DNA of 64,000 nt from assembly GCA_934477125.1 (NCBI GenBank), contig CAKSOL010000004.1:106664-170663 (forward strand), in the 5' to 3' direction. The notes below the pieces were generated by a model, which was not told the origin of the DNA, did not search any database, and worked only from the letters and a program-made list of their open reading frames with translations. The position numbers and the translations under genes were made by a program. Of the stretch, positions 662-59,938 are shown one piece after another. Every line of letters begins with the position of its first letter. Position 1 is the stretch's first letter. Source of the DNA: an uncultured Eubacteriales bacterium (GTDB lineage Bacteria; Bacillota; Clostridia; Oscillospirales; Acutalibacteraceae).

Positions 662-689
662 CGTCTGACATCTAACTTCTAACGTCTAA
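662..689 (+). repeat. NNTCTAA heptamer tandem array (4 units)
   Basis: CGTCTGA-CATCTAA-CTTCTAA-CGTCTAA, in the intergenic region upstream of the lysozyme gene and overlapping the stop of ORF 686-1225. Confidence 0.8.
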
Positions 690-1225
690 ATTCCAAGCTC
701 GCGCGCGTATTTCCTTATTTCGGAGAGGAACCAGCAGTAAACCGCCTCGCCGAGCTCCTGAAATATCGGGTCACCGTCGTGAGAACAGAGCATAGCAAAG
801 GTTTGTCCCATACGGCGGTCTATGTCTCCGCCCCGGCGGAACGCAAGATAATAGAAAGAAAACGCGCCGGTATCGGACGACGAACGGTAAAGCTCATCGT
901 CGGTTTTGCGCAATGTATCGAGAAAGCTTTTCTGCGCGATACCGTCCAGCTGGTCGTTATTGCAGCAAAGCTCAAAGCCGACAGTCGCCGTAAAGGAAAG
1001 CAGCAGCCGACGCTGAAGTATCATTTCATAATTTCCGTTTTCATCGTCCCCTGAGCCGGTTTCGCGCGCGTCCTCAACAAATCTTGCGGCAACCCTTCTG
1101 CCGAGCTCCACAGCCGCCGCTGCCTGTTCGGGAGAGCAGCCGGGAGGGGTATCGCCGGCGCGGCGCCTTTTCATCTCAAGCGAGGGCTTATCCCCCGCAA
1201 TTTTAATATCCTTATCGGAATCCAA
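686..1225 (-). CDS. hypothetical protein
   Basis: 179-aa ORF in the gene-dense minus-strand run upstream of the TSCPD gene. No recognisable motif. Confidence 0.45.
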   Translation of the reverse strand: MDSDKDIKIAGDKPSLEMKRRRAGDTPPGCSPEQAAAAVELGRRVAARFVEDARETGSGDDENGNYEMILQRRLLLSFTATVGFELCCNNDQLDGIAQKSFLDTLRKTDDELYRSSSDTGAFSFYYLAFRRGGDIDRRMGQTFAMLCSHDGDPIFQELGEAVYCWFLSEIRKYARELGI

Positions 1226-1231
1226 TCTTCA

Positions 1232-1483
1232 TCACCCTTTGCGCTTATATTCCTTTAAAGCCTCCGCCAGCTGCGCGGGACAGGAGGTATCCTTAAAGCC
1301 GCATTTGATACTGTCGAGGCGGGATATAACGTCGTCTACCTTCATTCCCCTGACAAGCGAGCCTATTCCCTTCAGATTTCCGTTGCAGCCGCCTGTAAAG
1401 GCAACGTCCTGCAGGGTGTCGCCCTCAACCTCAATATCAATTTTCCGGGAGCATACTCCCTTTGGTATATATGAAAATTTCAT
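1232..1483 (-). CDS. TSCPD domain-containing small protein (TIGR03905-like)
   Basis: 83 aa with a literal TSCP motif (KDTSCPAQLAEAL) and a GGCNGN segment typical of this family. Confidence 0.65.
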   Translation of the reverse strand: MKFSYIPKGVCSRKIDIEVEGDTLQDVAFTGGCNGNLKGIGSLVRGMKVDDVISRLDSIKCGFKDTSCPAQLAEALKEYKRKG

Positions 1484-1504
1484 CGCGAATATTCCTTTCC
1501 TTTT

Positions 1505-2575
1505 TTATCTGTCCTTAAATTTATTGCTTCTTACCGGATGTCTCAGCTTTCTCAGCGCCTTAGCCTCAATCTGACGTATTCTCTCTCTCGTTACGTTAAA
1601 TTCGCTGCCGACCTCCTCAAGCGTATGGCAGCGGCCGTCCTGCAAGCCGAAACGCAGTCTGATAACAGCCTCCTCCCTCGGAGAGAGGGTTTTGAGAACG
1701 GTATCGATATCCTCGTTTGTTATAGTTTTCAAAGCCGCCTCATCCGGCGCCAGAGCGTCCTCATCGCGGATAAAGTCCATAAGCCGGGAGTCCTCCTCAG
1801 GGCCTATCGGCGTTTCCATCGAAACCGGCTCCTGCGCAACGCGCATTATCTCGCGGACGCGCTCAACCGGCAGCTCCATCTTTTTGGCGATAAGCTCCTC
1901 GCTCGGCTCGTAGCCGTTTTCATGAAGCAGCTGGCTCTGAATCTTTTTAAGCCGGTTTATCGTTTCGACCATATGAACCGGTATGCGGATAGTCCTTGCC
2001 TGGTCGGCTATGGCGCGGGTTATTGCCTGCCTTATCCACCATGTTGCATATGTTGAAAATTTAAAGCCCTTGGTATAATCAAATTTATCGACAGCCTTTA
2101 TAAGACCGACGTTGCCCTCCTGGATAAGGTCGAGGAAATACATTCCCCTGCCGACATATTTCTTCGCGATACTTACGACCAGCCGCAGGTTTGCCTCGGT
2201 AAGGCGCTGCTTTGCGCGTTCGTCGCCCTCGGAGATTTTAACCGCAAGCTGAATTTCCTCGTCGCTCGTAAGCAGAGGAACCCTGCCTATCTCTCTCAGA
2301 TACATCTTAACCGGGTCGTCAAGGGACATATTATCGAAATTCAGGTCGTCCTGAAGATTTTCGATATCCACTTCCTCAAGCTTCAGGTCGTCGTCGGTCG
2401 GACCCTCCTCAAGGTCGATATCCAGAGTCGGCGGAACGGTGAAAAGCTCGTCGAGATCCTCCGGTCCGTTTTCAATCTCGTCTATCGAGTTGCTTTTGGA
2501 CTCCAAAAGCTCGTCCTGAGCCTCATCAAAGCCCTCGGCAGCAGTTTTTCCGTTCTTGTTTTTTACGTCGTCCAT
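1505..2575 (-). CDS. rpoD: RNA polymerase sigma factor RpoD/SigA
   Basis: Sigma-70 regions 2-4 are present ([43 protein letters not shown]). Acidic N-terminal region. Last gene of the dgt-dnaG-rpoD operon. Confidence 0.95.
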
Positions 2576-2579
2576 TCTC

Positions 2580-4349
2580 TTATTGTCCTTTCTTGTTTTT
2601 GATTATCTGAGTAAGGCTTGCCGCCCAGTCCTCAACTGAGCAATCCTTTAAAGAGGGCTGATTTTTGATACTGCTCTCCTGTAATATAACCGCAATCGAG
2701 TCTTTTAATACGGTTTTGGCATTATTATTGCCCTTTTCGCCGTTTTGCAGCGACACAAGATACCCGATTTCGGCATCGTTCAGCATATCTCCGAAATACG
2801 AAACGTCCGGCAGAAAGCCCTTTTCAACCGTTTCGAGCAGCCGCTCGTATATCCTGCGGTTAAGCGAGGTCAGCATTTTTTCGGGCGGCAGCTGCTCCGC
2901 GGCGGTTTCGCATAAATCGGGGTGTCTCAGCAGCACGGCGATAACCGTTTCCTCAGCTGCCGTTCCCCTGACATTTCCGCGCCGTTCGGGGTTTATATCG
3001 TCCTTTGAAAATTTCGGAGAAATAACGGCGCTTATTTGCTTTTTTCTTCTCTGCTCGGCGTTAGTTTTCCGCAGCTCGGAAATTTTGCTTTCAAGCGCCG
3101 TCCGCGATACTCCGAACTGCTCGCAAAGCCTGCCGGTATACATATCCCTTGCGATATCGTCGCCGGTTGAGGCGAGAATTGCCGCGGCGCGGGTAAGGTA
3201 TTGCAGCTTGCCGTCGTCGCTCTCGGTGTTGATTTCGTGAGCCAGACCCAAAAGCTTATATTCAATTTCGCTTACCGCGCCCTCAAGCAGCGCCGCGAAC
3301 CGGCTCGCGCCGTTCTTTTTTATAAATTCGTCGGGGTCCTTGCCGTCCGGAACGACGACTATTCTTACCTCAAGTCCGGTGTCCTTTAATACCTCCCCGG
3401 CTCTGCGAACCGCCTTCTGACCGGCGGCGTCGGCGTCCATCGTAAGCACGATTTCCTTTGTATACCGGCTTATGAGCTTTGCCTGTTCGGGAGTAAATGA
3501 GGTTCCGAGAGCCGCAACGGTATTCTTAAAGCCTGCCTGATGCAGCGATACAACGTCCATATTCCCCTCAACGAGAATTATTCTGTCGGCGCAAGCCGTT
3601 TTCGCAAAATTCATTCCGAAAAGGTTCTCGCTCTTTTTATAAACCGGGGTGTCGGAGGTGTTGACGTATTTGCCGCCGTGGGTATCGTCACCCGGCATCG
3701 CTCTGCCGCTGAAGCCGATAACGTTTCCCCGGATATTTATTATCGGGAACATAACCCGGCGGCGGAAGCGGTCGTAAAACGAGCCGCGCTCGCTTTTTCC
3801 GATAACGTTTGCCTGGAGCATATCCGCCTCGTCAAAGCCCTTTGAGCGCAGGTGTTTAATAAGAGCGTCCCAGGAATCGGGAGCAGCTCCGAGACCGAAA
3901 TGCTTTATGGTTGAAACGTTCAGTCCGCGCCCGGTAAGGTAATCCAAAGCCCATTTCCCCTGAGGGGACATCAGATAGGAATGATAAAATCTTGCCGTTT
4001 CGCGGTTGATATCGTATATCGTATTTTTAAGGCGCTGCATCGAGTCGTCGTAGCCGTTCTCCGGCAGGGCGACGCCCGACCGCTCCGCAAGCAGTCTTAC
4101 CGCCTCGATATAATCGAGGTTTTCGATAAGCTTTGTAAAGGTGAAAACATCGCCGCCGACTCCGCAGCCGAAGCAATAAAACGAGCCGTTTTCGGGGTAA
4201 ACGGTAAATGACGGGGTTTTCTCGTTATGAAACGGGCACAGCCCGACAAGGTTTTTGCCCCTCCTTTTCAGGTTCACATAGGGCGATATTACCGCCTCGA
4301 TATCGTTTCTGTATTTAATTTCATTGATAACTTCCTCGGAAATAGGCAA
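2580..4349 (-). CDS. dnaG: DNA primase
   Basis: Zinc-ribbon motif [13 protein letters not shown] and a TOPRIM region ([13 protein letters not shown]). Confidence 0.95.
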
Positions 4350-4367
4350 AATACCACCTCTTTTTTA

Positions 4368-5393
4368 TCACAGATTCCAGGATTTCGGGATATAGATATC
4401 CGAATACGCCGTAACGGCATAATGGTCGGTCATTCCGGCGATATAGTCGGTAACGGCGCGCCCGACGCCCTCGCGCTCGCAAATCGCCGTATATTCGCAG
4501 GACATTTTTTCCGGGTGGCCGCTGAAATATCCGAAAAGTCCGGCGACTATTCCGAAAACCTTTTCCTCCTCCGATTTCGCGGCAGGGTTTAGGTAAACCT
4601 CGGAATATAAGAATTTATGGAGCATATCATAGTATTTTTCGGTCACCGCGTCCATCCTTATATCCTCGCCGCTGTTTTCGATAATCGAATGAACAAGCGA
4701 GCTTATGCGTTCGCTCTTTGTTGCGCCGAGATGCTCGGTTATCTCGCGCGGCAGCTGCTCCGCGGTTATTATTCCGCCGCGAACCGCGTCGTCGATATCG
4801 TGGTTTATGTAAGCCACCCTGTCGCACACCCGCACGACGCGCCCCTCAAGGGTATGCGCCCATTCGCCGCGCGTATGGTGAAGTATACCGTCGAGCACCT
4901 CGGCGGTAAGGTTAAGCCCGGCGCCGTTTTTTTCGAGCCTTTCGCAGACCCTGACGCTCTGCTCAAAATGGGTAAATCCGCCGTTCAGCAGCTCGTTCAG
5001 CGCGCGTTCGCCGGCGTGACCGAACGGGGTATGACCGAGGTCGTGTCCCAAAGCAATCGCCTCGGTTAAATCCTCATTGAGCCGCAGCGCGCGCGATACG
5101 GTACGCGCAATCTGGGCAACCTCCAGCGTATGGGTAAGGCGTGTGCGGTAATGGTCGGATTCGGGAGAAAGGAAAACCTGCGTTTTATGCTTGAGCCGGC
5201 GGAACGCCTTGCAATGGATAATACGGTCGCGGTCGCGCTGAAAGTCGGTTCTCAGGTCGCACTTTTCCTCCGCGCGCTTTCTGCCCCTGCTTTCAGCCGA
5301 AAGAGCCGCGAGGGGCGAAAGAGTTTGACGCTCCAGCTGCTCGGTTCTCTGTCTTACATTCTGCATAAGCTCACCTCCGAAAAAGCCCTTCAC
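4368..5393 (-). CDS. dgt: dGTP triphosphohydrolase-like HD-domain protein
   Basis: HD motif (RTRLTHTLEVAQIAR...GHDLGHTPFGH) and a dGTPase-like N-terminus. Sits upstream of dnaG as in many Clostridia. Confidence 0.85.
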   Translation of the reverse strand: MKGFFGGELMQNVRQRTEQLERQTLSPLAALSAESRGRKRAEEKCDLRTDFQRDRDRIIHCKAFRRLKHKTQVFLSPESDHYRTRLTHTLEVAQIARTVSRALRLNEDLTEAIALGHDLGHTPFGHAGERALNELLNGGFTHFEQSVRVCERLEKNGAGLNLTAEVLDGILHHTRGEWAHTLEGRVVRVCDRVAYINHDIDDAVRGGIITAEQLPREITEHLGATKSERISSLVHSIIENSGEDIRMDAVTEKYYDMLHKFLYSEVYLNPAAKSEEEKVFGIVAGLFGYFSGHPEKMSCEYTAICEREGVGRAVTDYIAGMTDHYAVTAYSDIYIPKSWNL

Positions 5394-5443
5394 TACTTAT
5401 ATTCGCCGAAAAATCCGCAATTCCTCTTTTTTATTGCGAAAAT

Positions 5444-6079: not shown

Positions 6080-6132
6080 TTCTCCGATAAAAAACGCGGC
6101 CGTCCCTCAGGACAGCCGCGATATTCGCATAA

Positions 6133-6339
6133 TTATTTGTCTTCAATACCAAAACGCTTCTTAAATCTGTCAACACGACCGCCGGTATCGACCAGCTTCT
6201 GTTTACCTGTAAAAAACGGATGACATTTTGAGCAAATATCCAAACGAATGTCCTTTTTGGTTGAACGGGTTTCAAATTCTGCGCCGCAGGCACACTTAAC
6301 CGTTACCTTTTCATACTGAGGATGAATTCCTTCCTTCAT
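6133..6339 (-). CDS. rpmE: 50S ribosomal protein L31
   Basis: [27 protein letters not shown]...[10 protein letters not shown]. The start was moved to the internal Met of the 83-aa ORF to match the canonical L31 N-terminus. Confidence 0.9.
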
Positions 6340-6432
6340 CGTTGTCACCTCTTTCTTACTCTTGTCACCATAAAATAATATCATACCGAATACAAAAATG
6401 CAAGGTATTTTTTAAAATTTTGCAAAAAAACC

Positions 6433-19810: not shown

Positions 19811-19830
19811 GATTTAAGACGTTAGATTTG
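19811..19830 (-). repeat. degenerate inverted partner of heptamer array (TTAGAYN units)
   Basis: TTAAGACGTTAGATTTG. Its reverse complement reads AATCTAA-CGTCTTA. Lies 22 nt from the forward array. Confidence 0.5.
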
Positions 19831-19851
19831 CAGTAAATGAGATTGTGCGCA

Positions 19852-19886
19852 GGTCTAATATCTAACATCTAATGTCTAATGTCTAA
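19852..19886 (+). repeat. NNTCTAA heptamer tandem array (5 units)
   Basis: GGTCTAA-TATCTAA-CATCTAA-TGTCTAA-TGTCTAA. The last units encode the C-terminal RH and the TAG stop of fprA on the opposite strand. Confidence 0.85.
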
Positions 19887-21036
19887 ATTGCATCTCGTCC
19901 GCCAGAGCGGCAAGCTGTGCGCGGCTCTCGGCGTTCAGCGCGGATTTTATCTGAACCGTTGTTTCCGCAAATTTCAAATCCTTGCTCTTTTCGAGCATAC
20001 CGCGGATAACCCGCGCCGCCGCCGGAGCCCAGCTGCCGTTTTCGATAATGCCGACGGTGCGGTTTCTGAAACCGCGCTCGGTAAGGGCTTCTATAAAGGT
20101 GCGCATAAAGGGGAATATATCCGCATTATACGTAGTAGTGGCTAAAACTATACGGTCGTAACGGAAAGCGTCCTCAACAGCCTCCGCCATATCCTCGCGC
20201 GCAAGGTCTGCCGACGATACCCTGCACCCCTTGCTTTCAAGCAGGGCTTTAAGCTCTTTTGCGGCAGCGGCGGTGTTGCCGTAAACCGAAGTATAGGCGA
20301 TAAAAACACCCTCGCTTTCGGCGCGGTAGGACGACCAAATATCATAAAGGTTTAAATAATAGCCGAGGTTTTCGGAGAGTATGGGACCGTGTAGCGGGCA
20401 GATAGTCCCGATATCGAGCGCAGCCGCCTTTTTAAGCAGAGCCTGAACCTGAGCGCCGTATTTCCCGACAATTCCGAAGTAATATCTTCTCGCCTCGCAC
20501 GCCCAGTCCTCGTCCGCGTCCAGCGCTCCGAATTTTCCGAAGCCGTCCGCCGAGAACAGTATGCGGTCGGCGCTGTCGTAGGTAACGATAACCTCAGGCC
20601 AGTGAACCATCGGAGCGGCGATAAATTTAAGCTCGCGCGAGCCGAGGGAGAGGGTATCGCCGTCGGAAACCGTTATATTCCTGCCGGAAAAGTCGGTTCC
20701 GAAGAAATTTTTCATCATGGCGAACGCTTTCGCCGATGAGACTATAACGGCGTTCGGGTAACGCTCGGCAAACGCGGTTATTCCGGCGGAATGGTCAGGC
20801 TCCATATGCTGAACTATAAGGTAATCCGGCTCAGCCGAGCCCAATACCGCGGCTATATTCTCAAGCCATTCTCCGACAAAGTTCTTATCAACCGAGTCCA
20901 TAACCGCTGTTTTTTCATCAGCTATGACATACGAATTATACGCCATACCGTTCGGAACGGCATACTGACCCTCGAACAAGTCAATCCTGCGGTCATTGAC
21001 CCCGACATAAAAAACCTTTTCGCTTATATTTTTCAT
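19876..21036 (-). CDS. fprA: FprA-type flavodiiron protein (metallo-beta-lactamase + flavodoxin domains)
   Basis: HxExDH di-iron motif (QHMEPDHSAG) and a C-terminal flavodoxin-like domain (YTSVYGNTAAAA). Confidence 0.85.
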   Translation of the reverse strand: MKNISEKVFYVGVNDRRIDLFEGQYAVPNGMAYNSYVIADEKTAVMDSVDKNFVGEWLENIAAVLGSAEPDYLIVQHMEPDHSAGITAFAERYPNAVIVSSAKAFAMMKNFFGTDFSGRNITVSDGDTLSLGSRELKFIAAPMVHWPEVIVTYDSADRILFSADGFGKFGALDADEDWACEARRYYFGIVGKYGAQVQALLKKAAALDIGTICPLHGPILSENLGYYLNLYDIWSSYRAESEGVFIAYTSVYGNTAAAAKELKALLESKGCRVSSADLAREDMAEAVEDAFRYDRIVLATTTYNADIFPFMRTFIEALTERGFRNRTVGIIENGSWAPAAARVIRGMLEKSKDLKFAETTVQIKSALNAESRAQLAALADEMQFRH

Positions 21037-26583: not shown

Positions 26584-26601
26584 CAGCAATAGGATTTTGT
26601 A

Positions 26602-26629
26602 TATCTAATATCTAATATCTAATATCTAA
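26602..26629 (+). repeat. TATCTAA heptamer tandem array (4 perfect units)
   Basis: TATCTAA x4 between convergent genes, adjacent to a hairpin embedded in the trmB 3' end. Confidence 0.85.
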
Positions 26630-27315
26630 CGATATACCGCCTCAAGGCGGTATATCGGCTGACCGAGCGAGGAAAAGCGGCGCTCGTATTCGGTTACGAT
26701 ATTCTCCCTTGCCGCCTCGGTCTGCGAATTATGCAAATCAAGCGACACATTTTTGAGCGCAAAGCCGTTTCCGCTGAGCTGTTCTATCGAAAATTCAAAA
26801 AAGCCCATATTATCGGTCTTTTGATGTATTTCCGCGCCGGGCGCCATAAGCCGCTTATATATTTCGAGGAAATTCGCGTGGGTCAGGCGGTGGGCGGCGT
26901 AGCTCTTTTTCGGGAACGGGCAGGAAAAATTAAGGAAAATCCGCTCTGCCGCGCCGGCAGGGATATAGCGTTCGAGGTATTCCGCTCCGCACTTTAAAAA
27001 GCGCAGGTTCGGCACTTCCACCCGGAAAGCCGCCTCGCATGCGCTGACAAGCACGTTTGCGCTTTTCTCAACCGCAAGCAGGTTTATTCCGGGATTGCGG
27101 CGGGCAAATTCAACCGCAAAGCCGCCCTTTCCGCAGCCGATTTCAAGGAAAAGCGGCTGTTTTTTGCCGAACCAGCGGTCGATATCTATTATTTCGCGGT
27201 TGCGGTCGTTATTCCGGAAATCCCGGTCGTCGCTGTCGGCGATATAGAGTATATCCTCAACCGCCGCAAGGCGTTCGTTCAGATGCTTTTTTCTTCTTCC
27301 GCGCATTTTCATCAC
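26626..27315 (-). CDS. trmB: tRNA (guanine46-N7)-methyltransferase
   Basis: LEIGCGKGGF SAM motif and TrmB-like conserved segments (RIFLNFSCPFPKK). Confidence 0.85.
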   Translation of the reverse strand: MMKMRGRRKKHLNERLAAVEDILYIADSDDRDFRNNDRNREIIDIDRWFGKKQPLFLEIGCGKGGFAVEFARRNPGINLLAVEKSANVLVSACEAAFRVEVPNLRFLKCGAEYLERYIPAGAAERIFLNFSCPFPKKSYAAHRLTHANFLEIYKRLMAPGAEIHQKTDNMGFFEFSIEQLSGNGFALKNVSLDLHNSQTEAARENIVTEYERRFSSLGQPIYRLEAVYR

Positions 27316-28109: not shown

Positions 28110-28262
28110 TCCCAATAAAACATAAAAAGCCGCAGGCAATAAACCTGCGGCTTCTGACAGTTTCCGTAATTTTCCTACGGCGGCATTATCCGCATCAGGT
28201 TACAGGTCGGGATTTAAGCCTTGCGGCAAATCCCCTCTCAGCCGGGTTTCACCCAGCTCCCT
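28110..28262 (-). promoter_or_regulatory. TPP (THI-box) riboswitch with terminator expression platform
   Basis: Minus-strand aptamer at ~28172-28262 reads GGGAGCUGGGUGAAACCCGGCUGAGAGG...ACCUGUAACCUGAUGCGGAUAAUGCCGCCGUAGGAAA, matching the CUGAGA and ACCUGAU..GGAUAAUGCC..CGUAGGGAA THI-box cores. A GC hairpin (GCCGCAGGUUUAUUGCCUGCGGC) plus U-run follows at ~28110-28150, ahead of thiT. Confidence 0.85.
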
Positions 28263-28368
28263 TATTGCATTGAAATTATATCACCCTGCAAGCCGCTTGT
28301 CAAGCGGTTTTGACAGCACATACCGGAAAAGCGGCGGGCGCTTTGGCAAAATGCAGCGGTAAGGTCTG

Positions 28369-42525: not shown

Positions 42526-42615
42526 AGAATTATATTTCTACCGAGTTCGGGCGGCGCAGGGTGCCGCCCGAATTTAATCGTCAGATGTCAGATATGCGAA
42601 GCGAAAGGTCTTGCA

Positions 42616-42650
42616 GGTCTAATGTCTAACATCTAATATCTAAAATCTAA
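42616..42650 (+). repeat. NNTCTAA heptamer tandem array (5 units) in DUF4317 promoter/leader
   Basis: GGTCTAA-TGTCTAA-CATCTAA-TATCTAA-AATCTAA. Preceded by degenerate TCAGA units (CGTCAGA-TGTCAGA). Ends 14 nt before the DUF4317 ATG. Confidence 0.85.
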
Positions 42651-44993: not shown

Positions 44994-45188
44994 TCATTCT
45001 TCGATTTTCACAATATCAATCGCGGCATTTAAAAGCAAATTTACAAGCTCATTCCGCGAGCGGTTTGTTTTAGCCGATAAATCGTCCAAGCGTTTTATCA
45101 GCTCATCCTTCATTCTAACAGAAATAATTTTGCAGCCGTCATCGCCCCTGCGGACGTTCTTTTTTGTTATTTTTATTACATCTGCCAT
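44994..45188 (-). CDS. ribbon-helix-helix (CopG-family) DNA-binding protein
   Basis: 64 aa with an RHH beta-strand-helix pattern (KIISVRMKDELIKRLDDLSAKTNRSRNELVNLLL). Lies in an AT-rich islet. Confidence 0.7.
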   Translation of the reverse strand: MADVIKITKKNVRRGDDGCKIISVRMKDELIKRLDDLSAKTNRSRNELVNLLLNAAIDIVKIEE

Positions 45189-45316: not shown

Positions 45317-45610
45317 ATGTGGGGTGACTGGATACCGGTCATAATTTTATCTGCTTGTGTAGTTGTTTTAATGGTCGAAACAGTCTCTGTTTTAAAAGTT
45401 TACAGAAATACCGAAAACGATGAAAAGAAACGAAAGGAACATAAAGCAGAAGCTGTCGCCTGCTTGGCTTTTGCAATAATAACTACTGTGTTTATTATTT
45501 TTTATATGATACCGAATGCCGTTTATTACAGTAACCATCCTATGACGGTTTCGGTATTTTTAAAGCCCGGTATACGCTTTTCGGCGTATACCGGGCTGTC
45601 TAATGTCTAA
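45317..45610 (+). CDS. small two-TM membrane protein (hypothetical)
   Basis: 97 aa in the AT-rich islet, driven by a consensus TTGACA-18-TATAAT promoter. Its C-terminus and stop codon are encoded by a hairpin plus the start of a heptamer array. Confidence 0.45.
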   Translation: MWGDWIPVIILSACVVVLMVETVSVLKVYRNTENDEKKRKEHKAEAVACLAFAIITTVFIIFYMIPNAVYYSNHPMTVSVFLKPGIRFSAYTGLSNV

Positions 45611-45639
45611 TGTCTAATATCTAATATCTAACGTCTAAT
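45598..45639 (+). repeat. NNTCTAA heptamer tandem array (6 units)
   Basis: TGTCTAA x3, TATCTAA x2, CGTCTAA. Supplies the TAA stop of the small membrane protein ORF and abuts the comM stop. Confidence 0.85.
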
Positions 45640-47169
45640 TCAGTTCACTCCCCAATATTTTCGGTCGAGGCTGCGGAAGCGTATCGCGGTTAAAATATGG
45701 GTCTTTCCGATTTTTTCTTCTCCTGCAAGGTCTGCCGAGGTTCTCGCAACCTTTAAAATGCGGTCGTATGCGCGCGCGGAAAGTCCGAGCCGGTCAAAGC
45801 TCGCTTTGAGGTATTCCGCGGCATCGTCGGTCATAACGCAGAATTCTCTGAGCATTGCCGGGGTAAGTCTCGCGTTGCAGCTGATACCGCTGCCGGCGTA
45901 GCGTTTCTGCTGAATCTCTCGCGCGCGGCAGACGCGTTCCTTTATTTCAGCCGAGCTTTCCGAGGGACGGGCGTCGGAAAGGGCGTTGTAATCAACCGGC
46001 CCGACCTCAATTTGCAGGTCAATTCTGTCGAGCATAGGTCCCGAAATTCTGCCGAGGTATTTTGAAACCGCGCCCGGAGCGCAGGTGCAGCGGCGTGTCG
46101 GATGACCGAAATAGCCGCAGGGGCAGGGATTCATAGCCGCAACAAGCATAAAATTGCTCGGAAAGGTTGCCGAACCGCTCGCGCGCGAGACCGTTACGCA
46201 GCCGCTTTCAATCGGCTGTCGGAGCGCCTCCATAGCGCCGCGCGAAAATTCGGGCAGCTCATCGAGAAAAAGAACGCCGTTATGGGCAAGGGAAATCTCG
46301 CCGGGGCGCGGAACGGTTCCGCCGCCGGTCAGTCCCGGAGTGCTTATGGTATGGTGAGGAGCGCGGAAGGGGCGGATGCTCGTAAGCGGGTGTTCCCCGT
46401 TCAAAATTCCGGCTATCGAATGAATTTTCGCCGTTTCGACCGACTCCCCGAAGGTCATTTCGGGCAGAATTGTCGGCAGGCGCATGGCGAGCATACTTTT
46501 TCCCGAACCGGGAGGTCCTATCATCAGAATATTATGACCTCCTGCCGCGGCGGTTTCAAGCGCTTTTTTCGCGGCGATATGTCCGCGGACATCGCTGAAA
46601 TCAAGTCTCGCCGCATCGGGTATTACGGGGTCGGACGCAGGAACGGCAGCAGGAATAAGCTCCTCGCCGCGCAGATGCTTTATAAGGGCGGAAACGCTCT
46701 CGACGCCGTATACCTCAATACCCTCGGCGACAGCTCCCTCAGCCGCGTTTTCGGCAGGAACAAAGAGCTTTTTCGCATTTTCCGCGCGGGCGGTAAGCGC
46801 CATTGCGAGAACGCCGCGGACGCCCCTTACCCTGCCGTCGAGCGAGACCTCGCCGAGAAATATACAGTCGGAAATATCCGCCTTGAGCTGACCGGAGGCT
46901 ATAAGAATCGATATAAGAATAGGAAGGTCGTAAACCGACCCCTCCTTTTTTCTGTCCGCCGGGGCGAGGTTTACGGTTATCCGTCCGGTCGGAAATTTAA
47001 AGCCGCTGTTTTTAACGGCGGCGTGAACCCGGTCGCGCGACTCGCGAATCGCGGTATCGGGCAGACCGACGAGGTTAAAAGCCGGCAAGCCTGCCGAAAC
47101 GTCCGCCTCGACCTTTATCATATAGGAATCCAATCCGAACAGTCCGACGCTTTTCAGCCCTGCAAACAT
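45640..47169 (-). CDS. comM: YifB/ComM-family Mg-chelatase-like AAA+ ATPase
   Basis: Lon-like N-domain, AAA+ Walker A (IGPPGSGKSM) and a C-terminal ChlI domain. The start was trimmed to MFAGLKSV. Confidence 0.85.
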   Translation of the reverse strand: MFAGLKSVGLFGLDSYMIKVEADVSAGLPAFNLVGLPDTAIRESRDRVHAAVKNSGFKFPTGRITVNLAPADRKKEGSVYDLPILISILIASGQLKADISDCIFLGEVSLDGRVRGVRGVLAMALTARAENAKKLFVPAENAAEGAVAEGIEVYGVESVSALIKHLRGEELIPAAVPASDPVIPDAARLDFSDVRGHIAAKKALETAAAGGHNILMIGPPGSGKSMLAMRLPTILPEMTFGESVETAKIHSIAGILNGEHPLTSIRPFRAPHHTISTPGLTGGGTVPRPGEISLAHNGVLFLDELPEFSRGAMEALRQPIESGCVTVSRASGSATFPSNFMLVAAMNPCPCGYFGHPTRRCTCAPGAVSKYLGRISGPMLDRIDLQIEVGPVDYNALSDARPSESSAEIKERVCRAREIQQKRYAGSGISCNARLTPAMLREFCVMTDDAAEYLKASFDRLGLSARAYDRILKVARTSADLAGEEKIGKTHILTAIRFRSLDRKYWGVN

Positions 47170-47266
47170 CACGTTACCCCCTGATTCATCTGATCCGTCA
47201 GCCAGATATGACAATATTATACACCCTTTTACAAATAAATACAACGGGGAGTTTAAGCAAAGCCAA

Positions 47267-47287
47267 TGTCTATCGTCTAACGTCTAA
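47267..47287 (+). repeat. short NNTCTAA array (3 units plus degenerate tail)
   Basis: TGTCTAT-CGTCTAA-CGTCTAA then TTCTGAT. Lies between the comM start and the stop of the Cys-rich ORF. Confidence 0.7.
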
Positions 47288-47481
47288 TTCTGATGTCTTA
47301 CAAGCTCGTATTCGCCGTTATCCGGGCGGAAATACGGGCAGCCGGCGGTTTTCCCGGTTAAAAACGAAAGCATTTCGTCCTCATCGAGCGACTGTTCACA
47401 GCACCAGCAGTCGCTTTCAGGGTCGTAGCTGTAATTAACGCAGCTTTCGCAGCAGCCGCCTGAGTAACCGTTTCCGAGCAT
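47284..47481 (-). CDS. small cysteine-rich protein (hypothetical)
   Basis: 65 aa with GGCCESC, CWCCEQ and GCPYF motifs and a strong AAGGAG RBS. A copy of the conserved 55-nt hairpin element lies in its leader. Confidence 0.5.
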   Translation of the reverse strand: MLGNGYSGGCCESCVNYSYDPESDCWCCEQSLDEDEMLSFLTGKTAGCPYFRPDNGEYELVRHQN

Positions 47482-49641: not shown

Positions 49642-49676
49642 TTAGACGTTAGATGTTAGATTTTAGACGGTAGATG
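49642..49676 (-). repeat. heptamer array in inverted orientation (TTAGAYG units, 5 units)
   Basis: TTAGACG-TTAGATG-TTAGATT-TTAGACG-GTAGATG. The only array in reverse orientation. Paired with the forward array ~100 bp away. Confidence 0.8.
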
Positions 49677-49776
49677 CGGGGGGCGGAGGGATTGTGCGCT
49701 GACGGGAATATTGATAAATACGTTGGTTTTTGCATTTTTTCTCAGCTTGCGGCGGCGATGATTTTGCCGGTTTGCA

Positions 49777-49825
49777 GGTCTAAAATCTAAAATCTAACGT
49801 CTATTGTCTAATGTCTAACGTCTAA
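49777..49825 (+). repeat. NNTCTAA heptamer tandem array (7 units)
   Basis: GGTCTAA-AATCTAA-AATCTAA-CGTCTAT-TGTCTAA-TGTCTAA-CGTCTAA. Contains the stop of the 49808-50242 ORF. Confidence 0.85.
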
Positions 49826-50242
49826 TCTTCCCTTTTCGAGTCTTTTTGAAATCATTCCGGCGAACGGAACGCCGACAAAGCTCAGCAGCAGCCAGAAAAA
49901 CGAATAGAGCGCGCATATCTGCCCCGAAACGTTAAAGGGCATACGGCTGTAATCCCAAACGTTCTTTTTAAGAATAATATTGAAAACAACGCCGAAAATA
50001 TATTCGATACCGGTTATAAACGCGCTGCCTGCCGCCGCCTTTAAAAATCTTCCGCAGCGTTTCATCTGCCGGGAAATCGAGCTAAGCCCCAAAAACGAAA
50101 ATCCGCCGGCGCAGAGCATTGACCAATGGGTATAGCCGCGCCAGATGACCTCAATCATACCGTAGCCGCAGGCGCCGATTGAAAAAATTAAAAAATTACA
50201 CTTTCTTTTGCTCATAATTATCACCGAATATATTATTAGCAA
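49808..50242 (-). CDS. small polytopic membrane protein (PF06541/DUF1113-like)
   Basis: 4-TM protein with a GIEYIFG...NVWDYS pattern. Its stop lies within a heptamer array. Confidence 0.45.
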   Translation of the reverse strand: MLIIYSVIIMSKRKCNFLIFSIGACGYGMIEVIWRGYTHWSMLCAGGFSFLGLSSISRQMKRCGRFLKAAAGSAFITGIEYIFGVVFNIILKKNVWDYSRMPFNVSGQICALYSFFWLLLSFVGVPFAGMISKRLEKGRLDVRH

Positions 50243-51457: not shown

Positions 51458-51458
51458 T

Positions 51459-52361: not shown

Positions 52362-52362
52362 A

Positions 52363-55258: not shown

Positions 55259-56337
55259 TCCGTTCCGTATTTTATTGCGAGCATATCGCAGAGAACCAGC
55301 GCGGTAAGGCTGTCGGCAACAACCCGCGCGCGGTGGGCGATAAAGGGGTCGTGTCTCCCGGCGGCGGCAAGCTCGGCGTTTTCGCGCGTTTTAACGTTAA
55401 CCGTCTGCTGAGGCAGGGAGATTGTAGGCGTAGGCTTTACCGTACAGCGGAAAACAAGCGGCATTCCGTTGGTTATTCCGCCGTTTATTCCGCCGTTATG
55501 GTTGGAGCGCGTTCTTACCTCGCCGTTTTCATCATAATAAAAGCTGTCGTTAGCCTCCGAGCCGCACATTCCGGCAAAGCCGGTTCCCTCGCCGAATTCA
55601 ACCGCCTTTACCGCCGGAATTGAAAACAGCGCGTGGGACAGGAGGCTCTCGGCGGAATCGAACCAGGGCTCTCCCAAGCCTGCCGGCAGACCGCAGACGG
55701 CGGTTTCCAATATTCCGCCGACGCTGTTGCCCTCAGCCTTTGCCGCAAGTATTTTTTCCCTCATTTTTTTCTCCGCTTCTCCGCTTAAAACCGGGAAAGC
55801 GAGAGACGAAAGGGCGTTTATATCCGCGCTAAGGTCGCCGAACGGGCGGTCGGCAATTCCGGCACAGGCGGCGATATGGGTTCCGATAAAAATGCCCTTT
55901 CTGCGCATAGCCGGGATAACCAGAGCCGCCGCGGCTACTAAAGGCGCGGTTATTCTTCCGCTGAAATGTCCGCCGCCGCGGGGGTCGGAAAAGCCGCGGT
56001 ATTTAACAAAGGCGGTGTAATCCGCGTGACCCGGACGCATTTTATCGGCGATTTCGGAATAATCCGCCGAGCGGACGTCCTTATTTTCTATTCTGATACA
56101 GACCGGCGCGCCGGTTGTAAAGCCGTTATAAACGCCGCTGTCGAGCGTAAAGGCGTCCTGCTCGCGGCGCGAGGTTGATTCCGCTCCCGACGGGCGGCGC
56201 AATGTCAGCTGAGAGGCGATAAACTCCCCGTCCACCGGCAGTCCCGGAGCAAGACCGTCAACAACGGCGCCTATCGCCCTGCCGTGGCTCTCGCCGAAAA
56301 GGGTTACGGTCAGCGCCGTTCCGAGGGTGTTTCTCAT
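55243..56337 (-). CDS. aroC: chorismate synthase
   Basis: LTVTLFGESHG and RPGHADY motifs. Confidence 0.95.
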   Translation of the reverse strand: MRNTLGTALTVTLFGESHGRAIGAVVDGLAPGLPVDGEFIASQLTLRRPSGAESTSRREQDAFTLDSGVYNGFTTGAPVCIRIENKDVRSADYSEIADKMRPGHADYTAFVKYRGFSDPRGGGHFSGRITAPLVAAAALVIPAMRRKGIFIGTHIAACAGIADRPFGDLSADINALSSLAFPVLSGEAEKKMREKILAAKAEGNSVGGILETAVCGLPAGLGEPWFDSAESLLSHALFSIPAVKAVEFGEGTGFAGMCGSEANDSFYYDENGEVRTRSNHNGGINGGITNGMPLVFRCTVKPTPTISLPQQTVNVKTRENAELAAAGRHDPFIAHRARVVADSLTALVLCDMLAIKYGTDWLAE

Positions 56338-57347
56338 AAAGCTCCCGCCTTTCTCAGCTCCTCAAAAAGCTCGTCTGTCGTTATGTCGCTCATTTCATAT
56401 TTCCCGATTTCGGGTACTCTTATTACGGTAAGGCGATTTCCGGCGCACTTTTTATCATGGCGCACAGCCTCGATAATTTTTTCCGGCTCGGCGGAAAACG
56501 AAACCGGCAGGTTAAGGCTTTTAAGCACCGGGACAAGTCTTTCCCTCACCTTTGGCGCGCACATCGGCACCATTCCCGCCGCGACGCACTCGCCGTGGTA
56601 AAAATTCTGCATATTATTAGCCGTTTCAATCGCGTGAGCCAGGGTATGACCGAAGTTGAGTATCTTGCGCAGTCCGCCCTCGCGCTCATCGTTCTCAACG
56701 ACGGCGCGCTTTATTTTAAGCGAACGCTCGATTATCTCGTCCATATGCTCGTCACAGCCGCCCTTTTCAAACAGGGCGAACAGCTCCGGGTCGCTCGTAA
56801 GCGACATTTTGACCGCCTCGGCAAGACCGTTTGAAATCTGTCTTTCGGGCAGGGTTTTCAGCACGTCCGTATCTATAATAACCCGTTTCGGCTGCCAGAA
56901 CGCGCCGACAATATTCTTATATCCGGCGAAATCGATAGCGGTTTTTCCGCCTATCGAGGAATCGACCTGAGAAAGAACGGTTGTCGGAATATTATAAAAA
57001 TCTATTCCGCGCATATAGCAGGCGGCGACAAAGCCGGCAAGGTCGCCGACGACCCCTCCGCCGACCGCGATTACGCAGTCGGTTCGCGTAAGCTCCATTT
57101 CGACCGCCTGTTTAAGCACATACAAAAACGACGCGGAGGTTTTGCTTTTCTCGCCCTGCGGCAGAACAACCGTCCGGCTGCCGCGGCAGAAGGAGGCGAC
57201 CGTTTCGGCATATTCCGCCGGAACGCCGTCGTCGGTTACAATAAGCGCGCGGCGGGAAAGGTCAAGCAGCTCGCCGGCTCTCGACAGCGCTCCGCGCTCC
57301 AGAATTATATCGTAGCCTCCGCTTTGGGTTTTAACAGGAATAATCAT
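56334..57347 (-). CDS. aroB: 3-dehydroquinate synthase
   Basis: Glycine-rich NAD-binding GGGVVGDLAGF motif and the AroB core. Confidence 0.9.
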   Translation of the reverse strand: MIIPVKTQSGGYDIILERGALSRAGELLDLSRRALIVTDDGVPAEYAETVASFCRGSRTVVLPQGEKSKTSASFLYVLKQAVEMELTRTDCVIAVGGGVVGDLAGFVAACYMRGIDFYNIPTTVLSQVDSSIGGKTAIDFAGYKNIVGAFWQPKRVIIDTDVLKTLPERQISNGLAEAVKMSLTSDPELFALFEKGGCDEHMDEIIERSLKIKRAVVENDEREGGLRKILNFGHTLAHAIETANNMQNFYHGECVAAGMVPMCAPKVRERLVPVLKSLNLPVSFSAEPEKIIEAVRHDKKCAGNRLTVIRVPEIGKYEMSDITTDELFEELRKAGAL

Positions 57348-57353
57348 TTTTTA

Positions 57354-58442
57354 TCATCTCGCCAATTCTTTTTCGTAGCTGCCGACAACCTTTACGTTGT
57401 TGCAGCAGTATTTCAGTTCTTCAAGCATTTTTTCGCCCTCGGCGCTGTTTATGTTTCCCTCGCCCTCGGCATAGAAATAATAGCTCCAGATAAGCTCGCG
57501 GTTGGGGCGGCTTTTGAGCGCGCGCAGGTTAAAGCCGCAGCGGCCGATAACCGATATCGCGCGGGAAAGCGCTCCGGCAACGTTATTGACCGTGAAAAGC
57601 AGGATAAATCTGCCGTCGTTTTCGCCGCCGTCGCGTTTTGTTCTCGAAAAGACCGCAAAGCGCGTCGTATTGTCGTTTTCCTCGTTTATCCCGGCTTGCA
57701 GAACGCGCAGACCGTATCTTTCAGCCGCCTCGGCGCTGCCTATCGCCGCAAGGGACGCGTCGCCGCTTTCGGCTACCCTTTTCGCCGCAACAGCGGTATT
57801 GACAGCCTCAAGCGTTTCAAGACCGCGGTCGCTGATAAACTTTGCGCACTGTCCGAGCGCCTGTGGGTGGCTTATAACGGTTTTGATTTTGTCAATTTCC
57901 GCGTCCTCGGTTCCGAGGAGGTTCTGAACAATCGAAATATCGTATACCCCGTTTATAAACAGCGAGCCGGAAAAGGCAAGGTCCATAACCTGACCGACGT
58001 CCCCGTTACTGCTGTTTTCAACCGGCAGAACCGCGCAGTCGCACTCTCCGTTCACAACCGCATTATAGGCGGCGCGGAAATCGGGGTAGGCTATGGCGGC
58101 GGCGTCCGGAAAAATGCGGCAGGCGGCAACGTTCGCGAACGCTCCCTCAACTCCGCTGAAGGCGGCGCGCATACCGTCCATCAGTCTGTGCTGCATGGCG
58201 CGGGATATCTCCATATTCGCCTGCAAAAACCGCACGAAATACGAGCGGTATTCCTCATTTTCGATAAGCGCCGCGTTTTTCGCGATAACCTCCTGCTCGC
58301 GCGAGGGGTCGAACACCTGCAGGCCGCGTTCCTTTTTATAAGCCGCAACCTGCTTTACCGCGTCCATACGTCTGACAAACAGCCTTGCAAGGCTTGCGTC
58401 AACCTCGTTTATCTCCTTCCGCGCCCTTTCAAGCTCTGTCAT
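57354..58442 (-). CDS. pheA: bifunctional chorismate mutase / prephenate dehydratase
   Basis: N-terminal AroQ-class chorismate mutase (RKEINEVDASLARLFVRRM), then a PDT domain and an ACT domain (ESRP motif variant SRPNRELIWSY). Confidence 0.9.
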   Translation of the reverse strand: MTELERARKEINEVDASLARLFVRRMDAVKQVAAYKKERGLQVFDPSREQEVIAKNAALIENEEYRSYFVRFLQANMEISRAMQHRLMDGMRAAFSGVEGAFANVAACRIFPDAAAIAYPDFRAAYNAVVNGECDCAVLPVENSSNGDVGQVMDLAFSGSLFINGVYDISIVQNLLGTEDAEIDKIKTVISHPQALGQCAKFISDRGLETLEAVNTAVAAKRVAESGDASLAAIGSAEAAERYGLRVLQAGINEENDNTTRFAVFSRTKRDGGENDGRFILLFTVNNVAGALSRAISVIGRCGFNLRALKSRPNRELIWSYYFYAEGEGNINSAEGEKMLEELKYCCNNVKVVGSYEKELAR

Positions 58443-59629
58443 TTATTCTCCCCCCGGTATTCTTCAATAAGCGCGCGGAATGCAGGCAGGGAACGGCGGA
58501 TTGTATCGCTGTCGAGGCAGTAGGCTATTCTGACGTAGCCCTCATAGCCGAATGAGTCGCTCGGAACGAGCAGCAGCTCATATTTCTTAGCCCGCTCGGC
58601 GAATGCCGCCGCGCTTTTTTCGGGAGACTTCATAAACAGGTAGAACGCGCCGTCCGGCTTAACGACGGTATACCCCATTTCGGTCAGAGCACCGTAGAAA
58701 ATATCGCGGTTCTCGCGGTATACCGAAATATCGGCGGTTTGGTCAACGCAGTCGCGTATAACATACTGCATAAGGCTCGGCGCGCAGACAAAGCCGAGCG
58801 CTCTGCCTGCTCCGCAGACCGCCGCCCAGACGTCGGCGGCGTTTTCGATTTTCGGCGAAACAAATATATAGCCTATGCGCTCGCCCGGCAGGGAAAGCGA
58901 CTTGCTGTATGAGTAGCAGACGAGGGTGTTCGGATAAAACAGCGGAATATACGGCACCTCGGCATCGTATGCCAGCTCGCGGTAGGGCTCGTCCGCGATA
59001 ATGAATATCTCGCTGCCGAATTCTTTTTGCTTTTCTTTAAGCAGAGCCGCCAGCCGTTCAATCGTATCGCGGGAGAAAACCGCGCCGGTCGGGTTATTCG
59101 GCGAGTTTACTATAACCGCCTTTGTTTTTTCGTTTACCGCCCCGGCGAGAGCGTCGAAGTCTATCTGGAAATCCCCCTCGCGGCATTTAACGACGCGGAG
59201 TTCCGCTCCTGCCTTTTCGGCGAAAACGCGGTATTCCGGGAAGAAAGGAGCGAGGACTATAACCTCGTCGCCCGGATTTACTATTGCATTCAGCGAAACG
59301 GTAAGGGACGCCGCCGCGCCGCAGGTCATATAAATATGGGCGGCGTCCGCCTCGGCGCCGAAGCAGCGGCGGATATGCTCCGCTATCGCCTCTCTTGTAC
59401 CGAGGTCGCCGGGAGCGGAGGTGTAGCCGTGGAGCGAAACGGGGTCGCCTGCGGCAAGGCGTGTTATAGCCTCGGCAACGGCAGGGGGTGCCGGTATGCT
59501 CGGATTGCCGATACTGAAATCGAAAACGTTTTCATCGCCTATTTCGGCGCGGCGCTTTTTCGCATACTCGAATATCTCGCGGATAACCGAGCTTTTTCTG
59601 CCGAGTTCAGCCATTTTTTCTGAAATCAT
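58439..59629 (-). CDS. class I/II PLP-dependent aminotransferase (aromatic/aspartate aminotransferase)
   Basis: SPNNPTG and SYSKSLSLPGERIG (PLP lysine) motifs. The start was trimmed to MISEK, which has a GGAGGT SD. First structural gene of the aro supraoperon. Confidence 0.85.
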   Translation of the reverse strand: MISEKMAELGRKSSVIREIFEYAKKRRAEIGDENVFDFSIGNPSIPAPPAVAEAITRLAAGDPVSLHGYTSAPGDLGTREAIAEHIRRCFGAEADAAHIYMTCGAAASLTVSLNAIVNPGDEVIVLAPFFPEYRVFAEKAGAELRVVKCREGDFQIDFDALAGAVNEKTKAVIVNSPNNPTGAVFSRDTIERLAALLKEKQKEFGSEIFIIADEPYRELAYDAEVPYIPLFYPNTLVCYSYSKSLSLPGERIGYIFVSPKIENAADVWAAVCGAGRALGFVCAPSLMQYVIRDCVDQTADISVYRENRDIFYGALTEMGYTVVKPDGAFYLFMKSPEKSAAAFAERAKKYELLLVPSDSFGYEGYVRIAYCLDSDTIRRSLPAFRALIEEYRGENK

Positions 59630-59720
59630 AAATTTACCTCCGAAAATAAAAGAGCCCGCAAATGCGCCGCCCTTTAAGGGCAACGCGAAATGCGGACTCC
59701 GAAATACCTCTTTTGCGGCT

Positions 59721-59798
59721 TTACCGAGCCGCTGACGGGGTGTTCAGGTCCGCGATGTTAAAGAAGTAATAATAAGAAAACGCAAATGCTTTTTTCAT
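59721..59798 (-). CDS. Phe/Tyr-rich leader peptide (MKKAFAFSYYYFFNIADLNTPSAAR) of the aro supraoperon
   Basis: 25-codon minus-strand ORF with a GGAG SD 6 nt upstream. It carries 4 Phe and 3 Tyr within 9 consecutive codons, and is followed by GC hairpins and a U-run immediately before the aminotransferase RBS. Confidence 0.6.
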   Translation of the reverse strand: MKKAFAFSYYYFFNIADLNTPSAAR

Positions 59799-59864
59799 AA
59801 CGGACTCCGACACCTCTCTTTTTTCATTTTTTATTTATTTACATTTTAAACCCTCTGCGCGGAT

Positions 59865-59892
59865 TTGTCAAGAGGAAATTAGACGGTATAAT
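59865..59892 (+). promoter_or_regulatory. sigma-A promoter of pyk; transcript leader begins with a heptamer array
   Basis: TTGTCA, 16-nt spacer, TATAAT. The NNTCTAA array starts ~12 nt downstream of the -10 box. Confidence 0.5.
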
Positions 59893-59903
59893 TTAACGTC
59901 ACA

Positions 59904-59938
59904 GGTCTAATGTCTAACGTCTAACGTCTAACATCTAA
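59904..59938 (+). repeat. NNTCTAA heptamer tandem array (5 units) in pyk leader
   Basis: GGTCTAA-TGTCTAA-CGTCTAA-CGTCTAA-CATCTAA. Located between the pyk -10 box and its RBS. Confidence 0.85.

Follow-up and report, generated by a model that had tools for sequence, protein, structure and literature searches.

The 64,000-nucleotide stretch of DNA analysed here (the window; positions 106,664 to 170,663 of contig CAKSOL010000004.1, from an uncultured Eubacteriales bacterium) is interspersed with arrays of a tandemly repeated heptamer, R-TCTAA-N. These arrays are the inverted arms, usually of five heptads, of a composite element built around an asymmetric core of ~100 nt. The family is lineage-specific, intergenic and present far beyond chance. 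We tentatively propose that it represents a non-autonomous composite intergenic repeat of the foldback or miniature inverted-repeat transposable element (MITE) type, which propagates by copying and conversion, and whose heptads are read by a sequence-specific protein. We favour this reading while giving it somewhat less than an even chance.

Ten arrays with a period of 7 occur at nine sites in the window, where the chance expectation is 0. TCTAANNTCTAANNTCTAA has 20 matches in the window and none in 100 dinucleotide-preserving shuffles, and Tandem Repeats Finder (TRF) independently reported period-7 arrays at each of the sites listed in a preliminary description of this DNA, which was based on the sequence alone. 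This confirms the tandem heptamer family with a TCTAA core that was described at about nine window sites, and dispels the doubt that the arrays might be no more frequent than chance. The locus was retrieved from many human-gut metagenome assemblies by exact-protein look-ups, and its closest named homologues are metagenome-assembled genomes (MAGs) labelled Clostridia, Oscillospiraceae or Ruminococcaceae. As the same arrays recur in these independent assemblies, an assembly artefact, another doubt raised at the outset, is excluded. All window arrays are intergenic or overlap a stop codon. Nine of the ten carry TCTAA on the + strand (43 TCTAA on this strand, 9 TTAGA), bearing out both the intergenic location and the same-strand bias, regardless of the strand of the flanking genes, that had been noted. 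Across ~82 kb of the species we count 12 arrays if only sites common to the window's strain type are included; the 8.5 kb to the left of the window contain none.

Unit statistics come from 30 distinct arrays of the window and its sister strains, which together contain 120 complete units. The base directly 5' of TCTAA is G or A in 113 of the 120 units, and the other variable base is nearly free. Entropy amounts to 0.06-0.50 bits at the five core positions and to 1.76 and 1.26 bits at the two variable positions, figures that are bounded, not created, by our array finder, which demanded at least four of five core matches. The earlier view of two variable positions beside TCTAA thus needs partial revision: the core is kept as stated, but one of the two positions is nearly always a purine, giving the unit R-TCTAA-N. 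The tandem arrays themselves are equally real, but contain 2-7 units in the window instead of 4-7, and five is the species-wide mode (exactly five units in 18 of the 30 distinct arrays). Adjacent units are mostly unlike at the two variable positions, in contrast to the near-identical units of simple repeats made by slippage.

The element is laid out as (TTAGAYR)n, the core (GATTGTGCGCTGACGGG...GCAGAATTTAACGGCTTGCAGG) and (YRTCTAA)n, and ten aligned copies give the consensus (TTAGAYR)n-GTGCGGGGCGGAGAGATTGTGCGCTGACGGGAAGTTTGATAAA...GCGCAGAATTTAACGGCTTGCAGG-(TCTAAYR)n. The full window copy at 49642-49825 is an inverted pair with a 111-nt spacer, and a 32-nt block beside its left arm (49682-49713) shares 91% identity with a strain-specific copy upstream of gyrB. 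With an nhmmer profile, the core was located at eight distinct + strand sites, every one in this species, and was absent from ~440 loci of other organisms. One of the eight is the full window copy; the other seven belong to sister strains, where a prophage-like region harbours several of them. Terminal inverted repeats around a short non-coding core, the mark of MITE and foldback elements, are therefore present in multiple copies. Right arms have the unit order YG-AA-CR in common and left arms the degenerate unit TCTACSG, which argues that the copies derive from a master sequence and not from independent slippage.

Short-spacer and solo arrays look like deletion derivatives of the composite element. 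The array at 19854 has a 26-nt spacer in which the 10-mer GATTGTGCGC of the core recurs and, like those at 42618 and 59906, it retains degenerate left-arm units and parts of the junction. A common TTGCAGG junction had been assigned to four arrays; the full heptamer is found in two of them, GCAGG in three and CAGG in all four. The junction belongs to the larger conserved element. The AATTTAACGT motif alone is not enriched in the window.

Strains of the species differ in their copies. Between two strains, a difference of 180 bp corresponds exactly to one element. Directly after the pyk stop codon, some strains carry an inverted pair and others a terminator hairpin; residual similarity remains at this site, suggesting overwriting rather than insertion. 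The array downstream of gyrA has 2-5 units across strains, and the array at 671 has three units in the window and five, with different variable bases, in strain L440. In a gene for a FAD-dependent oxidoreductase, the last five codons and the stop are array units (L121 19656-19680, and the equivalent positions in L123). Its array-encoded last residues read ...HELDLRR or ...HESDIKR before the stop, with the length unchanged. The ...HESDIKR form, seen in one strain, agrees with homologues from other species (HESDI...), and in the ...HELDLRR form of the others a cluster of substitutions turns the end of the gene into perfect heptads. Clustered substitutions that make perfect heptads at constant length bear the signature of gene conversion.

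Individual array sites are not kept in related genomes. In four relatives, with GyrB 83-91% identical, the 12-22 kb around dnaA-gyrA contain no arrays, so that the check for conservation in relatives proposed earlier is negative in this region. None of the four has arrays upstream of gyrB or downstream of gyrA, which speaks against conservation at these orthologous sites; their remA-gyrB gaps are short. Elsewhere the distribution is patchy. Termite-gut and other metagenome contigs contain right arms of similar sequence (CAGG-TCTAATG-TCTAAAA) as well as inverted pairs, a more distant Eubacteriales genome has similar arms and pairs, and another Oscillospiraceae MAG carries arm pairs with their own conserved spacer.

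On a 4-kb contig of the Oscillospiraceae MAG bin66 (L034 1-1000; 329x coverage), a stretch of 940 bp contains five heptad arrays. They form inverted pairs around a 45-nt spacer conserved in the contig (tttttacattNaaggtcttttcttaat), and each pair is flanked by GC-rich terminator-like hairpins. These arrays are a sister family with a different core. A transposase on this high-coverage contig is ruled out, as its open reading frames (ORFs) encode GDSL esterases.

The gyrB look-up extended the sequence rightward by 5.6 kb, which is prophage-like. The prophage-like region follows gyrA in sister strains, ~5-11 kb to the right of the window end (L441 15939-21947), and encodes a CI-like repressor, a 129-aa late-activator-like protein (phrog_36) and the small and large terminase subunits. 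With seven heptad arms and 4-5 element cores in 4 kb, it is the densest cluster seen. The whole element had no true match in phage or plasmid collections, and the core 15-mer gave chance matches only in IMG/VR.

The arrays encroach directly on coding sequence. Three units place TAA in all three frames of one strand and TAG in all three of the other, so that an arm can abut or slightly overrun a gene end and become its stop. At least eight genes have stop codons supplied or directly abutted by arrays, namely a 178-aa gene, the flavodiiron-like gene, the TrmB gene, a 97-aa ORF, the DUF6472 and CmpB genes, the FAD oxidoreductase and the prophage terminase large subunit. At the other end of genes, sense right arms finish 11-22 nt before the starts of DUF4317, gyrB, terS and two other prophage genes. 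The conserved junction sets TTGCAG (or TTGCAC, TTGTAT) one base before the first heptad, and a spacing of exactly 17 bp separates TTGCAG from TAAYRT in the third heptad, a hexamer with the T, A and T that mark a -10 element. The expected transcription start, near the end of the fourth heptad, is a purine. This TTGCAG/TAAYRT pair is the best promoter candidate in the 94 nt from a strong terminator to the ATG of DUF4317, and in the prophage such a candidate stands between the late-activator-like gene and terS. Judged by this geometry, some right arms, such as those before the DUF4317 and prophage terS genes, probably serve as promoters that face outwards.

What acts on the arms seems to be the single heptad, read as DNA with a 7-bp period and not as the stem of a hairpin, because the cores are the better-kept part and the arms do not covary. 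The heptad cores deviate from the consensus by ~3% (0.7-8% per position) and the inner conserved blocks of the element by 17.5% and 20%, figures that carry an ascertainment bias, the arrays having been found via their TCTAA cores. Arm-to-arm identity at the variable positions is 48% within elements and 49% in the between-element control. This absence of covariation speaks against hairpin selection on the arms. The inverted pairs as such fold strongly, at -47.6 kcal/mol (z = -5.2) and -39.5 kcal/mol (z = -7.3). The element core has no conserved RNA fold (RNAalifold consensus -0.33 kcal/mol), which rules out a structured RNA there. Rfam had zero matches at the arrays or the core, its sole window match at gathering threshold being a thiamine pyrophosphate (TPP) riboswitch elsewhere, and in E-value mode two 22-kb loci returned weak, unrelated matches only. 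Known RNA families are ruled out by this search, and the statement that the arrays are not REP, BOX, ERIC, RUP or CRISPR is borne out. Nor do six-frame stops explain the invariant first T and second C of the heptad, because CTAA or TTAA would suffice.

The preliminary description remarked that 7 bp is not a helical repeat and that the units are no obvious protein-binding dyads. Such a period is no obstacle to protein binding, since the omega repressor of plasmid pSM19035 reads heptads with five conserved and two degenerate bases. As 21 bp make two helical turns, readers of the arrays would spiral round the helix, as omega dimers do on their heptads. To our knowledge, ribbon-helix-helix (RHH) proteins are the only class that reads contiguous heptads. 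Other candidates were dropped, as their period or sequence misfits or the orientation of the arrays is untied to transcription: HutP-type (UAG-N4)x3 sites, Spo0A 0A boxes (TGTCGAA), CtsR boxes, Rho rut sites, cold-shock-protein heptamer sites, a mimic of the 16S rRNA 3' end (UCUAAGG) and primase CTA.

We therefore picture the following course for a repeat that copies and converts. Copies of the element sit in intergenic gaps, where strain comparisons show them gained, lost or overwritten. Their unit number shifts, apparently via slippage, and they may spread into adjoining sequence through substitution clusters that resemble gene conversion. Internal deletions would yield the short-spacer pairs and solo arms that make up the majority of the window content. 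Such copies would be tolerated, as the heptad sequence itself lets an arm that overruns a gene end turn into a stop codon. The DNA of each heptad would be read in trans by a protein whose binding has a 7-bp period, perhaps an omega-type RHH protein, or else a transposase or recombinase responsible for copying the element. Some right arms may have been co-opted as outward promoters.

A number of observations weigh against this course of events. No transposase lies within the ~95 kb of genome reached, nor was any other partner protein found, and sites as short as a heptad would be short for known bacterial transposases. The strain comparisons yielded no recognisable target-site duplication or clean empty site, and the differences at the pyk site and at the gyrB upstream copy resemble replacements more than insertions. 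The uniform absolute orientation of the copies over ~95 kb is unlike what simple cut-and-paste would produce. Many solo arms have perfect cores, as dead remnants would hardly be expected to, and the ascertainment bias described above also bears on how well the cores appear to be kept. As to promoters, the proposed -35 element TTGCAG agrees with the consensus at only 3 of 6 positions, and most window arms point at the 3' end of an opposing gene, with no obvious promoter use.

The arrays may instead be operators of the host. Here, a chromosomal or prophage DNA-binding protein, for instance an omega-like RHH dimer, would polymerise on the heptads and repress, roadblock RNA polymerase or mark the boundaries of transcription units. 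We consider this unlikely, but it has much in its favour: an omega-like architecture of five conserved and two degenerate bases in direct and inverted arrays of ~5 units, strongly kept cores in arms that lack covariation, arrays in 5' leaders beside the ribosome-binding site (DUF4317, gyrB, pyk, terS) and beside terminators, their density in the prophage regulatory region, and an orientation towards genes that is as irrelevant as it would be for a DNA site. A 64-aa RHH gene (CopG/Arc-like, RHH_1; 44994-45188, -) even lies between two arrays, although nothing links it to them, and RHH genes are common enough for this to be coincidence. Operators would, on the other hand, hardly be expected to vary between strains and to be missing from relatives, many arrays sit between convergent stops with nothing obvious to regulate, and no protein is tied to the arrays. 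A bolder version, which we regard as a distinctly long shot, would make the heptads the operator units of a new system, with a small DNA-binding protein that polymerises along some five R-TCTAA-N units at intervals of 7 bp. The element would then be a mobile terminator, promoter and operator cassette that rewires transcription-unit boundaries across genome and prophage, and the same principle of a lineage-specific heptad and its reader would explain the heptamers of cyanobacteria, Beggiatoaceae, Bacteroidota and many phages, including the TTCAAYG, ACTATYA and CATTAMG families.

Action at the RNA level appears comparably improbable. In this scenario the arms would pair as a ~33-bp intercistronic stem, serving as RNase III site, mRNA-stabilising hairpin or terminator, and solo arms would be RNA-binding sites (UCUAAYR, UAG-N4) or all-frame stop modules upstream of starts. 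The strong folding of the pairs fits this, as do the pair that occupies the position of the pyk terminator hairpin of sister strains and the elements that fill operon junctions of the prophage-like region from stop codon to ribosome-binding site; the Beggiatoaceae TAACTGA repeats have been proposed to act in translation (PMC4679880). Yet co-directional gene pairs show no sense or antisense preference, the arms do not covary, the core lacks a conserved fold, Rfam has no match, and the majority of window arrays are solo and unable to form a stem. Plain heptanucleotide microsatellites, favoured by slippage and harmless in intergenic DNA, would need neither an element nor a binding protein. In prokaryotes, no class of long simple repeats is commoner than heptamers, according to Mrazek (2007) as cited in PMC4679880; the unit number does differ between strains, composition-matched control cores are comparably frequent, and the unit holds stops in all six frames. 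Slippage, however, homogenises units, the opposite of adjacent units that differ around an invariant core, and it accounts neither for the sharp length peak at five nor for the conserved junctions, common core and common unit order; six-frame stops, for their part, require neither the invariant first T nor C over T at position 2. The composite architecture largely refutes this explanation, and we rate it as poor.

Poorer still, and in our view very improbable, is a replichore-polar signal, whether of the type of the FtsK-orienting polar sequences (KOPS) and Chi or from single-strand transposon insertion, with orientation set by the direction of replication. It would account for the single orientation of 10 of 11 solo arms and all eight core copies over ~95 kb. 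However, the region spans the origin. By Pfam, the right end of the window carries dnaA (61830-63149), and to the left of this gene are sigma-70, primase, aro genes, an Rnf operon and pyruvate kinase. DnaA boxes occur on both sides of dnaA, at 61521, 63335 and 63402, so that the window abuts oriC. To the right of dnaA, TCTAA again falls on the + strand in two arrays, one in the gyrB leader and one downstream of gyrA, just as it does to the left, and the same orientation is seen right of dnaA in three more strains and further right in the prophage-like region. The same-strand bias is thus real, but it is not mirrored at the origin as expected of KOPS or Chi, and the polarity with the replichore claimed in the preliminary description is ruled out in that form, though the test is a weak one, as non-prophage arrays to the right of dnaA number only 2-3. 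Within the probable oriC (61400-63530), TATAAATTCC forms a 10-bp direct repeat at 61491-61509, and one stretch is rich in AT. The DnaA box TTATCCAC directly adjoins the end of an inverted heptad pair in some strains.

Heptamer arrays are also common outside this lineage. A genome scan with TCTAA arrays returned >120 loci in many phyla. Composition-matched control cores are of similar frequency, however, with 78 (TTCAA), 63 (ACTAT) and 37 (CATTA) arrays of four units in IMG/VR against 49 for TCTAA. This rules out a universal function of TCTAA across phyla, and the breadth of the matches reflects heptamer repeats in general and the search pattern. The CAGG junction likewise fails as a family marker in metagenomes, where it mostly retrieves soil (A/G)GTCTAA arrays in which CAGG is merely a degenerate unit. 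The control searches uncovered further contig-specific heptad families (TTCAAYG, TTCAAYT, CATTAMG and ACTATYA; IMG/VR L279, L299, L294, L415 and L374) with one or two degenerate positions and up to nine arrays in 12 kb, often on a single strand, suggesting that lineage-specific heptad families are widespread in phage and bacterial DNA. On three phage-like IMG/VR contigs of GC 0.52-0.53 (L158, L169, L145), TCTAA(CG/TC/TG) arrays in sense orientation mark nearly every gene junction; they give the upstream gene its TAA and sit 10-20 nt before starts without a Shine-Dalgarno sequence. Among ~250 loci of many phyla, some one in three mixed arrays reaches a gene end on either side, co-directional genes show random orientation (26 sense, 28 antisense), and arrays in convergent gaps are moderately enriched (32% vs 20%).

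Arrays of short tandemly repeated repetitive (STRR) sequences have been known since 1990, and their function and binding partner are unestablished. Like the TCTAA family, the STRR sequences of heterocystous cyanobacteria are lineage-specific tandem heptamers, typically of 3-8 copies, that lie intergenically near starts or promoters. Both have head-to-tail 7-nt units above chance, a property of long simple sequence repeats in general, and many dispersed, mostly intergenic copies of one heptamer in one lineage. The TCTAA arrays differ in their host (a gut Clostridia MAG), in the heptamer, in being arms of a composite inverted element with conserved core and junctions, in the unlikeness of neighbouring units and in the length peak at five. 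Although the preliminary description did not recognise the arrays as a described element, the kind of repeat is known (STRR, long simple sequence repeats and TAACTGA repeats; PMC4679880; 10.1101/2022.06.06.494920), the STRR and TAACTGA repeats being its nearest counterparts; a literature search for the repeat strings themselves gave nothing relevant. A degenerate position is also present in the Nostoc heptamer GAC(C/T)AAT, repeated eight times upstream of recO (10.1101/2022.06.06.494920). In marine Beggiatoaceae, TAACTGA heptamers are dispersed intergenically in 2-6 copies, often a few nt upstream of starts, in 169 direct sets and one inverted set with identical units, and their patchy phylogenetic distribution suggests horizontal spread (MacGregor 2015, PMC4679880). 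The TCTAA family shares the dispersed intergenic arrays of 2-6 copies, the frequent position shortly before starts, the patchy distribution suggestive of horizontal spread and the stop codons, which let arrays overlap gene ends by only a few codons. Unlike TAACTGA, for which no core element is reported, it has stops on both strands and inverted pairs.

The heptad operators and parS sites of the omega repressor (inc18 plasmid pSM19035) resemble the TCTAA arrays in their contiguous 7-bp units with a conserved core of five bases and two degenerate flanking bases, in direct and inverted order, and in their location in promoter regions. Omega recognises WATCACW, in 7-10 heptads at a handful of plasmid sites, and is a known RHH binder, whereas the TCTAA heptads have many chromosomal sites, gene 3' ends among them. 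As with repetitive extragenic palindromic sequences (REP), bacterial interspersed mosaic elements (BIME), MITE and foldback elements, TCTAA copies are species-specific, intergenic, enriched between convergent genes, polymorphic between strains and spaced at about one per 7-10 kb, with inverted arms and internal-deletion derivatives. Here, in contrast to REP and MITE, the arms are tandem heptads and not a unique palindrome, the orientation is single, and no RAYT or other transposase and no target-site duplication were seen. Matus-Garcia and colleagues reportedly described putative mobile promoters in 2012, under the phrase 'promoter propagation in prokaryotes'. The right arms resemble these in placing the same -35/-10-like geometry (TTGCAG, 17 bp, TAAYRT) before unrelated genes; they differ in the weak -35 and in that most window copies face gene 3' ends, and their promoter activity is predicted from sequence. 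What is new is the composite, asymmetric inverted-arm architecture, the preference for five units and the encroachment on coding ends.

The locus is informative in that a strictly kept core of 5-6 bases with a free position, a five-unit length, conserved junctions, a common element core and gain, loss and conversion at strain level come together in one place. The arrays affect genes directly, by supplying stops and rewriting a C-terminus, and their six-frame stops can mislead gene calling and metagenome assembly. What reads the heptads becomes testable with one probe in one gut bacterium, and if the arms also carry promoters, they would offer a natural example of promoter propagation.

Table. 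Heptad arrays, element parts and promoter-like sequences in the window (window coordinates).
Feature	Position	Strand	Details
Array, solo right arm	671..689	+	3 units; degenerate unit TCTGACA just before; gives TAG stop to 178-aa gene on - strand (ORF 686..1225)
Short-spacer derivative of composite element	19814..19886	+	
Left-arm remnant TTAAGACGTTAGAT	19814-19827		within short-spacer derivative
Core remnant GATTGTGCGC	19841-19850		followed by junction AGG
Right arm	19854-19886	+	5 units; flavodiiron-like gene 19876..21036 (-) terminates within it
TTGTAT	26597-26602		17 bp before TAATAT (26620-26625)
Array, solo	26604..26629	+	4 units, every one TA; between strong terminator hairpin and TrmB-like gene end; supplies stop of 26626..27315 (-)
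Array with degenerate left arm	42581..42650	+	
Degenerate left arm TCAGATGTCAGATA	42581-42594		
Junction TTGCAGG	42611-42617		TTGCAG 17 bp before TAATAT (42634-42639), sigma-70-like geometry, downstream of strong terminator
Right arm	42618-42650	+	5 units; stops 14 nt short of DUF4317 gene ATG
Array, solo	45599..45638	+	6 units; hairpin directly upstream; occupies entire gap from stop of 97-aa ORF (+, inside array) to stop of ComM/Mg-chelatase-like gene 45640..47244 (-)
Array	47268..47287	+	one degenerate and two exact units (exact 47276-47287); overlaps stop of DUF6472 gene (47284..47481, -)
Full composite element	49642..49825	+	sole full copy in window
Left arm TTAGAYR	49642-49676		exact - strand run 49642-49667, 4 units and one degenerate; 70 nt upstream of DUF5685 gene
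Core	49677-49771		GATTGTGCGCTGACGGG at 49690-49706
Junction TTGCAGG	49772-49778		
Right arm	49779-49825	+	3+3 units (49779-49797 and 49807-49825) around one degenerate unit; provides stop of CmpB-like gene 49808..50242 (-)
Array in 5' leader of pyruvate kinase	59865..59938	+	ATG at 59995
Promoter-like TTGTCA	59865-59870		16 bp before TATAAT (59887-59892)
Single inverted unit TTAGACG	59879-59885		in spacer of TTGTCA/TATAAT
Right arm	59906-59938	+	5 units; preceded by motif AATTTAACGTC and junction ACAGG

At the left end of the window, the ORF at 300-614 (+, 104 aa) is probably spurious, as sister strains call a 544-aa GH25 muramidase on the - strand there, which starts near 608. The first array is thus flanked by two - strand genes, not by a convergent pair. 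The TPP riboswitch (RF00059, 59.5 bits) is located at 28154-28273 (-), upstream of a thiamine-transporter-like gene (Thia_YuaJ).

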